This document shows positions 15,766 through 21,332 of a stretch of DNA of 64,000 bases, piece by piece (within the stretch, counting starts at the first letter, position 1; every line of letters starts with the position of its first letter). Below the pieces are notes generated by a model. The model saw only the letters and a list, made by a program, of their open reading frames with translations. It ran no database searches and had not been told where the DNA came from. Position numbers and translations under genes: made by a program. The stretch is from a virus (taxonomy: Duplodnaviria > Heunggongvirae > Uroviricota > Caudoviricetes). The stretch lies in IMG/VR virus record IMGVR_UViG_2713896909_000009, positions 32,001 through 96,000 of that record, one strand, 5' to 3'.

Positions 15766-15914
15766 TGGTTATCCCTCAATAAAAGTGACATATTTATTAG
15801 ATTGCGGTGCCGGGTGCCTCCCGGTGACGTTAACCAGTTAACAATTAACGCCGGAATGTTTAATCATCAAGGAGGATTGTTTTAACTGTTCCGCGTGCGC
15901 TTAGCCGCATTCAC

Positions 15915-16001
15915 CACAACGGAAAGAGCATTTATGGCTCGCATCGCGGGAAAAAGCCCACGGTAGAGAGTCGAACTCTACAAATACTCTTACCTGTTGT
16001 G
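15915..16001 (-). repeat. Long imperfect hairpin unit A of a local repeat family
   Basis: Arms CACAACGGAAAGAG / CTCTTACCTGTTGTG flank about 55 nt containing a T-arm-like GAGTCGAACTC. Confidence 0.45.
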
Positions 16002-16735: not shown

Positions 16736-16871
16736 CCGGTTACGGTTCCGGCCAGGCCTCTTCCTCAACGGGGTGTTCTCCGTACGGACTACCGTTTATT
16801 GGTCGTTCCTGCGGTTTATGTTGTGAAGCCAGATGCTTATCTTCTGGTTGCTTCAAAGAGCTGCACTTCAT

Positions 16872-16939
16872 CACAACGGTAAGAGCACTCGATGCATTTA
16901 AGCCAAGCCCCATAAGGGAGAATGCCCTTACCTGTTGTG
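16872..16939 (-). repeat. Hairpin unit B
   Basis: CACAACGGTAAG ... CTTACCTGTTGTG. Confidence 0.45.
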
Positions 16940-17067
16940 TTGTGATGACCGGTGCTGATCTCCGGCTTGCGGTTATTTCAGACTCTCACGGGCGTTTAAT
17001 TGCCCCGCCGGACAGCTCTTTTCCGCAATAGCTGCAATGTCTTTCGCGCATCAGCCTGCGCATTCAT

Positions 17068-17154
17068 CACAACGGTAAGGGTACTTCGTAGGGATTCGAA
17101 CCCTCTGCCAAGCTCGGCGATCTCCGACGTCGCAAAATACCCTTACCTGTTGTG
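17068..17154 (-). repeat. Hairpin unit C with tRNA T-arm-like core
   Basis: CACAACGGTAAGGGTA ... TACCCTTACCTGTTGTG flanking GGGATTCGAACCC; directly 3' of the interrupted tRNA-like gene. Confidence 0.45.
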
Positions 17155-17155
17155 C

Positions 17156-17288
17156 TGGTGCCGGTTAACGGATTCGAACCGCTGACCTCTGGCCTAACAT
17201 CGAATCGTTGTCATTTGACCAGCAAGGCTGTCTACCGAAGTAGAAACGATGCTTTGGCTCTCGTGCTCTCCCACTGAGCTAAACCGGC
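17156..17288 (-). tRNA. tRNA-like gene with about 57-nt insertion between D-arm and T-arm (possible interrupted or pseudo tRNA; Thr expected from P1 order)
   Basis: 5' GCCGGTT-TA-GCTCAGTGGGAGAGC and 3' GGTC-AGCGGTTCGAATCCGTT-AACCGGC-A-CCA form acceptor, D and T arms; the middle 75 nt contain a CUAC-UUCG-GUAG hairpin and no clear anticodon arm. Confidence 0.35.
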
Positions 17289-17290
17289 AT

Positions 17291-17366
17291 TGGCGATGGT
17301 GGGTGGATTCGAACCACCGACCAGTTAGTTAACAGCCAACTGCTCTAACCGCTGAGCTACACCATC
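17291..17366 (-). tRNA. tRNA-Asn (GUU)
   Basis: 76-nt cloverleaf GATGGTG..GCTCAGCGGTTAGAGC..GTTGG-CTGTTAA-CTAAC..GGTTCGAATCC..CACCATCGCCA. Confidence 0.85.
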
Positions 17367-17570: not shown

Positions 17571-17650
17571 GCAACAGGAAAGGACGCTGACCAACAGATG
17601 GCCCCTTCTCGTTCATCTGGTTAATCACACCAGCGCCCTTACCTGTTGTG
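17571..17650 (-). repeat. Hairpin unit D
   Basis: GCAACAGGAAAGG ... CCCTTACCTGTTGTG. Confidence 0.4.
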
Positions 17651-17825
17651 CCTCCCCGTTCCCTAATACACAGACGGGGACACTCTGCGGTCGATTTTTT
17701 GACGGGGGACGACTCATACCCCGTGGCGTCTGGCTTCTTAGGCCGCAGCCATCATCAGATCATCGTTTGCATTTACTTTAATGGTCAGTTTCTAAACCGC
17801 CGCAAAGTCGCTAACCATGACGAAA

Positions 17826-18026: not shown

Positions 18027-18054
18027 ATTACACTAATGAATTTATTAGAGCAAT
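18027..18054. promoter_or_regulatory. Bipartite C1-operator-like site (two overlapping 17-mers, opposite orientation)
   Basis: GAATTTATTAGAGCAAT (16/17) and ATTACACTAATGAATTT (14/17) overlapping the dmt stop. Confidence 0.5.
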
Positions 18055-21000
18055 ATAGCAATAACGTCATGAGCTACACCACGAGTGTTCCCCTTACAAG
18101 ACACAGAACGTCTGGCAAAAAGAGGTTCCACTCTGAAGCCACTGTCTTGGTAAAGCTCCCTGATGTTTGGCGCACCACTATTAGTAATGAGGATCTTTGC
18201 ACCTCGGCGATGAGCATCCATTAGCAGAGATACCAGGCGTTTTTGCTCTTCAAACTTAAAGTCATGACCGGAATAGTTTGTGAACCCCTCTGTATTGGGG
18301 AGCGGTTCATACGGAGGATCGCAAAAGATGACATCTCCTTCTCCGGCAGCTTCAATCACCGCTGAAAAATCACCACATACAAACTCAGAACGCCCTTCAG
18401 CACCGAGGAAGGCTTCCATCTCCTGTAATGGGAAATACGGAGTTTTATACTTCCCATAACCAACATTAAACTCACCGGCCTGGTTGTAACGCGTCAATCC
18501 GTTAAAACAATGTCGGTTCAGGAACAAAAACGCTGCTGCACGATGTAAATCATCATAGGCTTGTTTGTTAAACGCATTCCGTACTGCCAGGTATCCTTCC
18601 TGTGTGTTGTAGTCCTGGAAAAACCGATGCGCCAGAGTGATAAGTGAATGTCCCTCACGTTGCAGAGTCCTGTAAAAGTTAATCAGGTCAGCATTCACAT
18701 CATTTAGCAGATTTTCTTGATATCCGGCATTTATGAAAACAGCTCCGCCACCAACGAAAGGCTCGATCAGGCGCTTTCCGTCAGGTAAATGCCTAAAGAT
18801 TTGTTCAAGAACACCAAATTTTCCGCCGACCCATTTAAATATGGGACGGTCAAATTCTGCCGTTAGCTTAACTCTCCGTTCTGTTGCTTCATGATTTTTT
18901 GCCTGCTGATATGCAGCCTTAATAATCCGCTCACCAATCCATCGCATTACTGGTATCGCCATGCTATTGCCGATCGCTTTGTAACGCGGTCCGTCAGCTG
19001 CAAGCATCGCGGCCTCTTCTTCGCTTAAATCTGGATAGTGATTGCGAAGGTATGCCAGTTCATCTGAAGTAACTTTTTTACGCTTTTCCGTCGGGATCAA
19101 CGTATGCCCATCAGGAAAACCTTGCAGTCTTTCACATTCGACAGGGGTAAGACGGCGGACAGCTACTGCTGCGTTTCCTACGTCATAGCAAACGGCTGTT
19201 GTATTTTTGGCCATTAAAGATGGTGAAGTATTCTTAGTTGCAGCATGTTGTGTACCGCTCATACGTTCAGGAAAAGCCAATGTAACAAGATGCTCATGGC
19301 TTTCTTGCTCACGTGCCCGCAATGTACCATGCCCTTCTGACCAAAAACCTGCTCCTGTGCTGCTAAAAACTGCAAGGTCAGTGGCATCTTTAAAGTCTCT
19401 CGCCTTTACTGTCGATGCGGTTTCATCGCCAATATATTCCCCAAATGCCGCCATCCTGAAAGCGTTTACGGCTTTCGTCGATTTCATACCGGGGGTAATG
19501 TCAGCGTGTAGGCATGGATTTAGGCTTTCGCCACTGATTGCAGCGCCATTTGCAATAATGGCGGAAGCGATTTCCTTCTTTTTTCGGCTCGGCGCAATAT
19601 TCCGGCGCACGCCTTCGAACTCAAAAAGTACCGTTGCGGGATCGAGGTCTGTTCGAGCACTTGCGACAACAAACACACGTCGGCGTCGTTGTGCCACTCC
19701 GAAGTATTGGGCATCAAGGATTCTCCAGGCCACCTTTCGCTGCGGTCCATAAATACAACCACACTGCGGCCACTTTGGAGCATGGCAACCGGTTTTGCCA
19801 TCCCACCGCCAGAACGCGTTACTTTTTCCTGATTCAGGTCGATCACCTGGTTCAAATGGCGCATCTTCTCCAGCCAATCCGGCAAGGAAACATCCGAAGG
19901 CGTTATCTGCCGATGACAAGACTCCTGGGACATTTTCCCAGACGATAACGGCTGGTTTGAGAAATGACTCAGCCCGTTTGTCGTCAATTGCATTTGCAAG
20001 CTCCACATACTTTAAAGTTAGCGCGCCACGCTCATCATCAAGCCCACCACGTAATCCCGCGATACTGAATGCCTGACAGTTATGGACCACCGCACCATTG
20101 AGGATATAGGAATGATCACCTTCGACTTCTATGTTGTATACAGTATCTAGGCCTACCGATTTAAACTCTTTGACTGTTCGTAAAAGCATTCCATGAGCCA
20201 ATCTTGATTTACGTGACAATTTCTGCGGGCAGATTGTTACCTGATAATAATTCCGTTGATTTACCACGCGATCCTCGATCACTTTTTTGGGCTCAACTTC
20301 AATAAAGCTGACCGAAGAAACATAACCACAAGTCTGTGACACCCCCGCAACGCCCCAAGCAAGCGCAGGACTAACACTATTAATTCTAAATCCCGCTTTA
20401 CCACTTGGTGTCCCATCAGTATCAAGATAGCCTTGTAAAAACACATGACGCAATGGATGCGACATCACCCATGCAGGGATACGCTTAGCATGGCTTAACT
20501 CGCCAAAATGTTCATTAAGCCAATTGGCATAACACGTATCATTCAAGGTTACTTTGATGCTCCCTCGGATTTCTCTTGCCACGGAAAATATGTTTTCTGG
20601 TATGCGACAATGAAACTTTCTCAATTTCTGGCAATTTATGCAAAAAACAACCGCCTTCTTAGATTTACCTCTCCATCTCCTAATATATCCATCGCCAACA
20701 TAAGCGCCCGCAAGATACATAGCCTGTTCTTCAGACAAGAACCGAGAACAAATATCTGGAGATGCAATATTGAAATTAGTTAGAGCGCACCATTGATATC
20801 CTGGCATATCACATGCTGCTCGCCATTCCGGTTCAGACAACAACTCTCTCTTAAAATATGTGCCATTTTTCCGGGTGTTTTGGGCTTTCCACCGAACAGC
20901 CAGGAAGGGATGGTCATTGGTTGTTCTTATACCTAAAGGCTGCCCAACGGCATTAAGTAACCCCGTATTAGCTATTTTTGAACCAACTCTTTTTACTTGT

Positions 21001-21332
21001 TGTAACCGCCCGAGATGACTGACTACGTAATCGCCAGGGCAAACATCTTCTATTGGTTTATAACCATTTTTACAAAGAACCATATGCCCCGCGGTAAAAC
21101 ATGGTGTTCCCCCGACGAGCACGTCAGGGGATTCTATTTCCCCAGCCAGGACTTTTTTGGCAAGTTTAGTCATGTCGCCAAGGTTGGCGACATGGGGCCA
21201 GCGGTGCGCAAGAACGGCCGATGGAAAAGACTCGATTTCAGCAAACCACGCCGGACGCATACCCAACGGTTCCCAGGCAATACTCGCGGCTTCAATTCCA
21301 CTGCAAACAGATCCATAGCACAGCTCTTTCAC
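18045..21332 (-). CDS. dmt: Bifunctional DNA methyltransferase (N-terminal C5-cytosine domain interrupted by an intein, C-terminal Dam-like N6-adenine domain)
   Basis: ORF track 1095 aa; C5 motifs GGTPC|QAFS (split), [23 protein letters not shown]; Dam-like [19 protein letters not shown]. Confidence 0.9.
20079..21101 (-). mobile_element. Intein with LAGLIDADG homing-endonuclease domain (341 aa, residues 78-418 of Dmt)
   Basis: Starts CFTAGHMVL after GGTP, ends NGAVVHN before CQAFS; block [16 protein letters not shown] and LQGYLDTDG motifs; excision restores [12 protein letters not shown]. Confidence 0.85.

Follow-up and report, generated by a model that had tools for sequence, protein, structure and literature searches.

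A tRNA-framed RNA with a structured cassette at the anticodon-arm position in P1-like phage-plasmids and other phages

The window analysed here is a stretch of 64,000 nucleotides (nt) from the IMG/VR virus record IMGVR_UViG_2713896909_000009 (positions 32,001 to 96,000), and it represents a P1-like phage-plasmid in which the C4 antisense RNA and its a1/b1 targets are present. At 17156-17288 the minus strand encodes a tRNA-framed RNA of 133 nt, termed here the element, of which 100% identical copies occur on IncY plasmids of Escherichia albertii. Read from 17288 to 17156, its sequence is GCCGGUU-UA-GCUC-AGUGGGA-GAGC-A-(75 nt)-AGGUC-AGCGG-UUCGAAU-CCGUU-AACCGGC-ACCA (RNA position p = 17289 - coordinate). 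A tRNA-Asn(GUU) gene, the element's partner in the array, lies 2 nt upstream on the same strand (17291-17366; called by ARAGORN, 71.7 bits with the Rfam tRNA model). A preliminary description of this DNA had reported a canonical acceptor stem, D-arm, T-arm and CCA, 75 nt in place of a 17-nt anticodon arm, a CUAC-UUCG-GUAG hairpin and an intact tRNA-Asn 2 nt away, and had named trnT of P1 for this slot. All of this was borne out by the sequence: the 7-bp acceptor, both arms and ACCA read on the minus strand, the 75 nt are there, the hairpin is present in the longer form UCUAC-UUCG-GUAGA, and P1 and its close relative JL22 carry an ordinary 76-nt tRNA-Thr(UGU) exactly at the element's position. 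The element is 57 nt longer than P1 trnT.

The frame of the gene contains a 7-bp acceptor stem, a D-arm, a T-arm with a GUUCRANYC loop, and a discriminator base followed by CCA. The 5′ strand of the acceptor stem (GCCGGUU, 17282-17288) pairs with AACCGGC at 17160-17166. The D-arm (GCUC-AGUGGGA-GAGC, 17265-17279) is preceded by U8 and A9, and U8, A14, G15 and the D-loop GG are invariant. A variable-loop remnant (GUC) and the T-arm (AGCGG-UUCGAAU-CCGUU) occupy 17167-17186, where G53, U54, U55, C56, A58 and C61 are conserved. Retention of these elbow and core bases, together with C48, suggests that the RNA body would be L-shaped. The discriminator A and the encoded CCA lie at 17156-17159. CCA is also encoded in the other members of lineage A and in D1/D2 (lineages are defined below), while it is not encoded in phage Jgk1, in the sequences designated L014, L015 and L025, or in lineage F; L008 is ambiguous.

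Between these parts lies a cassette of 76 nt (17187-17262), consisting of an arm and a head. The 5′ strand of the lower arm (C-GAGA-GCC, 17256-17263) pairs with GGC-CAGA-G at 17187-17194; the result is a closing C-G pair, an internal loop of non-Watson-Crick type that is rich in purines, and a 3-bp helix, GCC/GGC. The 5′ strand of the upper arm (AGCAUCG, 17247-17253) pairs with CGAUGUU at 17196-17202. The head begins with a 5′ junction linker, UU, and hairpin A (UCUAC-UUCG-GUAGA), together at 17231-17246 and 100% identical in six lineages, with UCCG in lineage F as the sole loop variant. Hairpin B follows at 17220-17230 (CAGC-CUU-GCUG), with a loop that is free in both sequence and length, and then hairpin C at 17210-17219 (GUC-AAAU-GAC), with an invariant stem and a loop of 3 or 4 nt. 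The 3′ junction linker AACGAUU (17203-17209) closes the head and has an alternative partner, AUCGUU, at 17245-17250. In the predicted fold the order is a C-G clamp, the internal loop of G.A type, GCC/GGC, a small AA/A loop, a 7-bp stem and a four-way junction. The cassette would accordingly be modelled as an irregular helix of roughly 16 layers ending in a junction that joins the three hairpins through the linkers UU and AACGAUU.

ARAGORN did not call the element as a tRNA, even with introns of 0-120 nt allowed and thresholds lowered to 60%; matching it to RF00005, the tRNA model of Rfam, gave nothing at the gathering score or at E<=10. These searches yield no missed cloverleaf, in agreement with the earlier failure to fold an anticodon arm, and none of the 16 versions of the element contains a 5-bp anticodon stem with a 7-nt U33 loop and an anticodon. 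A search of 601 nt with all 4227 models of Rfam 15 (E<=10, permissive filters) returned chance-level matches only, and no family fits the 75-nt core. On six E. coli plasmids the identical 133 nt are labelled 'tRNA-OTHER' by PGAP.

Comparison with relatives that lack the element shows what the cassette replaces. Alignment to trnT of P1 and JL22 and to the tRNA-Thr of SSU5-like plasmids gives identical flanks, with the exchange confined to tRNA positions 28-45. The preliminary description had placed an extra ~57 nt between the D-arm and T-arm; the length holds, but an insertion between intact halves does not, since positions 28-45 of the slot-mate tRNA (CUGCCUUGUAAGCAGGAU), which comprise the whole anticodon arm and two variable-loop bases, were exchanged for the 76 nt. 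In P1-like and SSU5-like relatives without the element, the slot holds tRNA-Thr(UGU), and nothing differs in flanks, acceptor, D-arm, T-arm or trailer. The N4-like phage ST4 has a tRNA-Ile-like gene with the same frame in the element's slot, and Hafnia phage Pocitis76 has a 74-nt tRNA-like gene with G33, again in the same frame and slot, within the leader of the N gene. The P1-like and SSU5-like cases are not mutually independent, because the whole Asn-Thr module is common to both, whereas the lambdoid and N4-like replacements are independent cases. Judged from these alignments, arm and head appear to have been grafted into at least three different tRNA or tRNA-like frames, each time at the anticodon-arm position. 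Homologous recombination through the near-universal D-arm on one side and the variable loop and T-arm on the other is a possible route. Comparison of neighbourhood open reading frames (ORFs) revealed no mobility gene travelling with the cassette.

Some of the slot-mates and their neighbours are unusual themselves. The ST4 gene annotated as tRNA-Thr that adjoins the element's slot-mate (L046 686-758) is reported by ARAGORN as 'tRNA-???' with a 2-nt anticodon. The Pocitis76 gene (L044 1525-1598) is annotated as tRNA-Gly(CCC) despite its G33, and is flanked by complementary leader and trailer sequences (UUGGCUUUGG / CCAAAGCUAA). In lambdoid phages (L044 1525-1598; L039 5300-5480) the stretch from the nutL-like sequences to the N gene holds a tRNA-like gene, and the complementary flanks in Pocitis76 suggest that the N leader is processed by RNase P or RNase III.

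Scans with exact and with degenerate words, together with BLAST, located the element on 11 plasmids, in phage Jgk1, on 15 IMG/VR contigs and on 9 metagenome contigs. None of 185,579 representative genomes carries it, and six of 5,426 complete E. coli genomes do, in all six on plasmids; across these searches the element is restricted to phages and plasmids. The sequences fall into 16 distinct versions and six lineages. Lineage A comprises phage-plasmids of the P1-like and SSU5-like types, from E. albertii, E. coli and Salmonella; lineage B is the N4-like phage Jgk1; lineage C is a single 43-kb contig; lineage D consists of contigs of 135-370 kb (one record of 866 kb) from huge phages; lineage E is one 70-kb contig related to B; and lineage F consists of lambdoid prophages.

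A covariance model (R1) built from 14 versions matches every member over its full length at 116-163 bits (30 loci; 157.2 bits for the copy in the window), while ordinary tRNAs score 25-55 bits, with the tRNA-Thr of P1, JL22 and T4 at the top (~55 bits). All 30 true matches include the tRNA frame, and the core was never seen outside one; two further core-word matches, one of them in 16S rRNA, are due to chance. Members share the head UU-UCUAC-UYCG-GUAGA, a hairpin B of 3-4 bp, GUC-N3-4-GAC and AACGAUU, together with the covarying arm and the tRNA frame. Degenerate scans of IMG/VR for more divergent heads returned the same 11 loci or chance coding matches, and an additional scan found lineage F; scans in which the stem of hairpin A was allowed to vary found no variant. 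The core sequence appears in no paper that was searched and topical searches found no description, though one may exist in other literature, so that this is apparently a conserved phage RNA family undescribed so far.

In the tRNA arrays of the huge phages of lineage D, further over-long tRNA-like genes adjoin the element (L017 1779-1887 and 1895-2001, equivalent to L020 5212-5434 and L019 1846-2068; L011 677-899; L017 ~2006-2084). They have a canonical D-arm, T-arm and CCA, weak acceptor pairing, and ~55 nt of unrelated sequence for the anticodon arm, and ARAGORN makes no call on them. A tRNA frame with a foreign core may represent a wider class.

The predicted fold was assessed by covariation, using a MAFFT alignment of 14 versions and then a model-fitted alignment (A3) of 16 versions that includes lineage F. 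The MAFFT alignment already contains compensatory pairs in the acceptor stem (6 of 7) and T-stem (3 of 5). In A3, 98.7% of cells are paired, compared with 27-45% when partners are slid by 1-3 columns, and 18 of 39 pairs have changed on both sides: 7/7 in the acceptor stem (99% of its cells paired), 3/5 in the T-stem, 1/4 in the D-stem, 3/3 in the lower arm, 2/7 in the upper arm and 2/4 in hairpin B. The covariation score was reached by none of 500 shuffles. Hairpins A and C and the single C27-G43 clamp pair never vary; all other helices show covariation.

Within the cassette, the lower arm changes from GCC/GGC to CGG/CCG in lineage F, amounting to three compensatory pairs, and the hairpin B stem from CAGC/GCUG to CGC/GCG. 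The outer pairs of the upper arm covary, being C-G in 8 cases, G-C in 5, G-U in 2 and U-A in 1. The internal loop of the lower arm, GAGA opposite CA or CAGA, is non-canonical in 12-14 of 14 sequences. RNAfold, applied to arm and head alone, returned the lower and upper arm in all of seven sequences from five lineages and the three head hairpins in five of the seven. An alternative head pairing, AUCGUU/AACGAU, would produce a four-way junction without linkers. RNAfold chooses the other pairing, and two changes that lack compensation, AACGAC in Jgk1 and AACAAU in L023, disfavour the alternative as the ground state; a role as second conformer is possible. Three motif resemblances were rejected on account of bases that vary between lineages: the likeness of ACGAGAG to the sarcin-ricin loop, that of GTTAGGC to an integron attC core, and a kink-turn reading of the internal loop.

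Selection acts unevenly along the gene. When a single representative of each lineage is compared with the others, identity averages 40% for the acceptor stem, 47% for the outer upper arm, 61% for the lower arm and 64% for the T-stem; it is 93% for AUCG/CGAU, 95% for the 3′ linker and 100% for both UU with the hairpin A stem and the hairpin C stem. The loops of hairpins B and C are at 37% and 63%, respectively. By this measure the non-tRNA head is the most constrained part of the gene. That the head stayed fixed while the arms gained compensated substitutions rules out a pseudogene and makes a very recent spread unlikely. Coding constraint is excluded because the overlapping ORFs are small (only 41 and 61 aa) and on the opposite strand, and because loop lengths differ by 1 nt between lineages. 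A short frame, AUG-ACA-ACG-AUU-CGA-UGU-UAG (MTTIRC*), is present at 17196-17216 on the minus strand and holds two Thr codons that tRNA-Thr(UGU) reads. It was rejected as a coding sequence or tmRNA-like tag, as its start and stop are not conserved (L008, Jgk1, L014) and the Jgk1 frame reads ACG-ACA-ACG-ACU.

Taken together, the element's occurrence in six phage lineages, the compensatory changes in frame, arm and one head hairpin, and the near-invariant head leave us with high confidence that the locus encodes a functional structured RNA that is not a tRNA. The preliminary description had left three choices, an intron-like insertion, a decayed tRNA or a tRNA-derived structured RNA, and it is the third that these findings support.

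The genomic setting of the element differs between lineages. In lineages A-E it stands in a same-strand tRNA array with 2-5 nt spacers, and in lineage F no tRNAs are found near it. All-against-all BLASTP of neighbourhood ORFs detected no protein family common to three or more lineages. On the coding strand, lineage F presents an S24-type repressor gene, a P63C-domain gene, a terminator, operator-like palindromes, a TAGACA-17-TATATT promoter-like site, boxA-like and boxB-like sequences, the element, 25 nt containing GGAGG, an N-like antiterminator gene, and then Erf and SSB. From its place between a pL/nutL-like region and the N-like gene, the lineage F element would be part of the earliest leftward transcript.

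These observations can be assembled into a model. A resident phage tRNA gene, here a P1-type tRNA-Thr(UGU), would have had positions 28-45 swapped for the cassette, and the resulting RNA would be co-transcribed with its neighbours. RNase P would cut the 5′ end and the normal tRNA 3′-end pathway would mature the other, with CCA either encoded or added; in the lineages where CCA is not encoded, a host enzyme would presumably add it. Folding into an L shape would stabilise the RNA. The arm is about twice the normal length and would present the head ~40 Å past the anticodon position, too far for the RNA to decode. The head would instead work in trans, with a protein that it engages sequence-specifically as ligand or decoy. 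Maturation through the tRNA pathway is the probable part of this model. The composite, a tRNA-shaped noncoding RNA made by cassette swap, matured by the tRNA machinery and displaying a trans-acting ligand on a tRNA scaffold, we consider evenly balanced, and the identification of the head as a trans-acting protein ligand, taken for itself, falls just short of that balance.

Among specific roles, we would favour that of an inhibitor or pseudo-substrate of a host factor that binds the tRNA body and has the anticodon arm as its target, for example through the anticodon-stem 'amputation' carried out by OLD-type nucleases. Phage tRNA genes have lately been recast as counter-defence tools. P2-OLD cuts host tRNA-Thr(UGU) through its anticodon stem, at CNG motifs that are paired, sensitivity is set by the anticodon arm, and coliphage tRNA-Thr(UGU) genes rescue cells from it (PMC12445682). 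The authors of that study named a dedicated phage inhibitor as an open possibility (PMC12445682). Circumstantially, a decoy role is favoured because the element displaces tRNA-Thr(UGU) in two phage-plasmid families, presents non-Watson-Crick pairs where OLD would cut, and in lambdoid prophages would be expressed early and leftward. An anti-defence function of any kind is nevertheless on the doubtful side. The fuller proposal, a natural tRNA scaffold with a repeatedly grafted payload that serves as an RNA inhibitor (uncleavable pseudo-substrate or sponge) of a nuclease recognising the tRNA body and attacking the anticodon arm, with OLD/Toprim as model case, is unlikely as it stands, and that the element is aimed specifically at OLD is more improbable again.

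Several points weigh against the composite model and the decoy role. The element's expression and processing are predictions from sequence, and its protein partner is hypothetical. A3 is model-fitted and hence favours the structure of the model, and covariation in the frame was possibly inherited in part from donor tRNAs and not maintained afterwards. With six or so lineages known, sampling may account for some of the 'invariance'. Hairpins A and C do not vary on either strand; for a purely structural RNA this is unusual, and other possible causes are recent spread or recognition of the DNA itself. The cassette also occupies non-Thr frames, so that nothing ties it specifically to tRNA-Thr or OLD, and the resistant phage tRNA-Thr in the OLD study does not act by competition (PMC12445682). 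Finally, the 38 ORFs scanned in the first ~40 kb of the window yielded neither a defence gene that targets tRNAs nor a gene for an RNA-binding partner. Among the matches listed (25 of 48), PADLOC applied to the 38 ORFs returned methyltransferase only, all from a single Dmt ORF.

The alternative that survives best is a cis-acting module, in which the tRNA-like fold is a processing or punctuation signal in polycistronic phage transcripts and has no function in trans. RNase P would, for example, separate nutL from the translation start of N, and the head would tune folding, processing, stability or termination. The layout of lineage F suits this idea, with the element between boxA/boxB-like sequences and the Shine-Dalgarno sequence of the N-like gene, 25 nt from the AUG; in phage lambda the same position is occupied by a leader hairpin processed by RNase III. 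The corresponding slot in the Hafnia phage holds a plain G33 tRNA-like gene flanked by a complementary leader and trailer, and the window has a segment resembling a lambdoid early leader just downstream of the element. However, a plain tRNA or tRNA-like gene already provides processing, which leaves a grafted, near-invariant head of 50 nt unexplained, as it does the head's conservation in settings as unrelated as arrays, leaders and huge phages. We regard a purely cis-acting role as improbable.

Slightly less probable is a selfish cassette, a small element, mobile or gene-converting, that has the anticodon-arm site as its target and is conserved for its own transfer machinery, at the level of DNA or RNA, with no benefit to the phage. 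At least three distinct resident tRNA or tRNA-like frames have had positions 28-45 replaced, as would be expected of such an element, stems A and C are invariant on both strands, and the displaced genes no longer decode. On the other hand, no transposase, endonuclease or reverse transcriptase is common to the neighbourhoods, the cassette is present as a single copy per locus, and the conserved D- and T-arm sequences make homologous recombination sufficient. Arms that diverged with compensatory changes around a fixed head further speak for long vertical descent under selection and not for recent spread.

A base-pairing small RNA has a smaller chance still. Here the tRNA frame would stabilise an antisense regulator, and the linker (GACAACGAUU) or hairpin sequences would pair with host or phage mRNA. 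Conservation of the 3′ linker reaches 95% and the fold prediction leaves it single-stranded, and ~10% of E. coli chromosomes contain, in their ylaC-pdeB spacer, a 20-nt exact match to CUGGUCAAAUGACAACGAUU, the only chromosomal match in E. coli; that match is same-sense and not complementary, with E = 6 in a clonal database. The longest complementarity within the 64-kb window is <= 11 nt, and the hosts, from enterics to those of soil huge phages, make a common mRNA target unlikely. The spacer match itself (L037 2501-2520) is to CTGGTCAAATGACAACGATT, covering hairpin C and the linker, is found in 560 of 5,426 E. coli chromosomes, and is probably due to chance.

Hairpin A also invites comparison with CRISPR repeats. 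The sequence UUUCUACU-loop-GUAGA (17231-17246, minus strand) could mimic the stem of the Cas12a handle and act as an RNA anti-CRISPR, as it is identical to the stem of what we take to be the consensus 5′ handle of Cas12a CRISPR RNA, AAUUUCUACUnnnGUAGAU. Hairpin A and the preceding UU never vary, as if read by a protein. The agreement is limited to the stem and first loop base, while the flanks differ (CG for AA upstream, C for U downstream). Hairpins B and C, like the linkers, show the same degree of conservation, and a repeat has nothing corresponding to them. The known hosts, those of the enteric lineages (E. coli, E. albertii and Salmonella), have to our knowledge no type V-A systems. The resemblance is probably a coincidence, and such mimicry is very improbable.

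An intron-containing tRNA, from which the extra RNA would be removed to give a functional tRNA-Thr or other tRNA, is equally hard to sustain. It would fit the element's location in a tRNA-Thr slot, its perfect tRNA frame and encoded CCA, and the tRNA of undetermined type reported by the PGAP caller. The anticodon stem of the slot-mate, CCUGC/GCAGG, is however absent together with its loop, and not merely split, so that splicing could not regenerate the tRNA, and no deletion in any lineage yields a 5-bp stem with a U33 7-nt loop. When restoration of the anticodon arm was attempted by hand, the candidate anticodons on the 3′ strand proved inconsistent between lineages (GUU, GUG, CUU, CUG or none) and lay inside the covarying helix. 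Intron-aware ARAGORN was negative on the correct strand, its lone extra call being a spurious 'tRNA-Gly' on the opposite one. No group I or other ribozyme family was found in Rfam at E<=10, and 57 extra nt are far too short for a group I intron. The preliminary suggestion of an intron-like insertion is therefore abandoned. The weakest alternative, a decayed tRNA pseudogene with a chance insertion, would account for the silence of tRNA finders and the impossibility of decoding, but it is effectively refuted by scores of 116-163 bits in 30 loci and six lineages, by stems that all still pair, with compensatory change outside hairpins A and C and the clamp pair, and by the fact that the supposed junk is the most conserved part of the gene.

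Other features of the window were noted around the element. A second odd tRNA-like unit lies directly downstream at 17074-17147 on the minus strand, with a 15-bp stem (GGUAAGGGUAUUUUG/CGAAGUACCCUUACC) and no D-arm. It encloses a small hairpin, UCGG-AGAUCG-CCGA, and a T-arm-like hairpin, AGGG-UUCGAAU-CCCU, and gives a weak mascRNA-like Rfam match (14.9 bits). The adjoining segment at 16937-17079 is 96-98% identical to lambdoid phages (mEp460, IME207, Stx2 phages) on the same strand as the element. Its counterpart there is the pL leader, which separates the cI repressor gene from the first early-left gene. The segment is present in JL22 and RCS47 and is not in canonical P1. It might be a leader or antiterminator-type RNA; the region 16930-17155 folds strongly (z = -3.1).

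Short repeats recur in the same region. cccttacctgttgtg occurs on the plus strand at ~16928-16941, 17141-17155 and 17637-17651; catcacaacggtaag occurs at 16869-16885 and 17066-17082. A trailer, CACAACAGGUAAGGG, follows each tRNA-like gene and recurs with its inverted partner, CCCUUACCGUUGUG, so that spacer modules are framed as long hairpins. Identical trailers stand behind tRNA genes of SSU5-like plasmids, and they may be recombination or processing joints of tRNA-array modules. Further away, the Dmt-type double methyltransferase ORF (18045-21260, minus strand, 1071 aa) has Hint and LAGLIDADG domains near its N-terminus, a domain content that indicates an intein; we know of no intein in Dmt of P1. 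A match to the Rfam small RNA STnc100 (47.3 bits against a gathering score of 47) lies at 15803-15918 on the minus strand, between a TerB gene and a crAss001_48-like ORF.

Several known RNAs resemble the element in part. Group I and archaeal bulge-helix-bulge intron tRNAs likewise carry extra RNA in the anticodon region, but the element, with its 57 nt extra, has neither an anticodon stem and loop nor a group I core or bulge-helix-bulge motif. Transfer-messenger RNA (tmRNA) has a tRNA-like domain of acceptor and T-arm with a large insertion for the anticodon arm. The element differs from it in lacking the alanine identity pair G3.U70 (3:70 is C-G or U-A), in its length (133 nt versus >230 nt) and in a short frame without conserved start or stop, and the tmRNA search of ARAGORN was negative on it. 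YrlA (RF02553) joins a tRNA-like module of D-arm and T-arm to a long protein-binding helix, and compared with a tRNA it is circularly permuted, so that its ends fall at the long helix. The element shows no evident Ro/Rsr-binding helix and scores 21.4 bits with RF02553 against a gathering score of 69, which places it outside the family; the match is an artefact, because the alignment spans the T-arm of tRNA-Asn and the D-arm of the element. Some YrlA members are phage-encoded (PMC4201824).

Counter-defence tRNAs occupy the same niche as the element, and in P1-like and SSU5-like elements the tRNA-Thr(UGU) slot and frame are identical. In these tRNAs, too, escape from nucleases evolves in the anticodon arm. 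Examples, here taken from their citation in the OLD study, are tRNA-Lys against PARIS and tRNA-Tyr against retron-Eco7 (PMC12445682). Such tRNAs keep their anticodon and replace the cleaved host tRNA, whereas the element has no anticodon and cannot decode, so that any counter-defence would have to work by binding or inhibition, a mode not known from any tRNA-like RNA. If the decoy reading is true, the element would be the first RNA-based counter to tRNA-targeting immunity, which would explain both the displacement of the anti-OLD tRNA-Thr(UGU) and expression from the earliest lambdoid transcript.

In design, the element equals an engineered tRNA scaffold. In the scaffold of Ponchon and Dardel (2007), a payload RNA reportedly replaces the anticodon stem-loop on an extended stem. 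In both, processing by RNase P and at the 3′ end as well as protection from nucleases would come with the tRNA body, but the scaffold is a laboratory construct while the element is natural, conserved and apparently transplanted between frames. If the head has a protein target, the element would represent a new phage-host interaction and a natural example of the tRNA-scaffold principle.

The nearest in kind to the element is T4 RNAC. Together with RNAD ('species 1 and 2'), it stands at the same-strand end of a phage tRNA array and is about 120-140 nt long; RNAC itself (139 nt) has a canonical T-arm (CCGGGUUCGAAUCCCGG), an acceptor-like closing helix and a large non-tRNA interior. The two differ in that there is no homology, with R1 matching just the true tRNAs in the T4 locus, and in that RNAC has no D-arm, no head motifs and no known cassette or allelic relation to a tRNA. 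The roles of RNAC and RNAD are still unknown (PMC3014915, PMC9697503), and the element offers a comparative partner for this 50-year-old puzzle. It is a conserved, non-decoding member of phage tRNA arrays, a gene that annotation pipelines drop or label 'tRNA-OTHER', and it indicates that the anticodon-arm position of a tRNA gene can dock a foreign structured RNA in P1-like, SSU5-like, N4-like, huge and lambdoid phages. Set beside these systems, the element is a variation on the theme of tRNA-like noncoding RNAs, with an unusual cassette-like replacement of the anticodon arm and a strongly constrained head.

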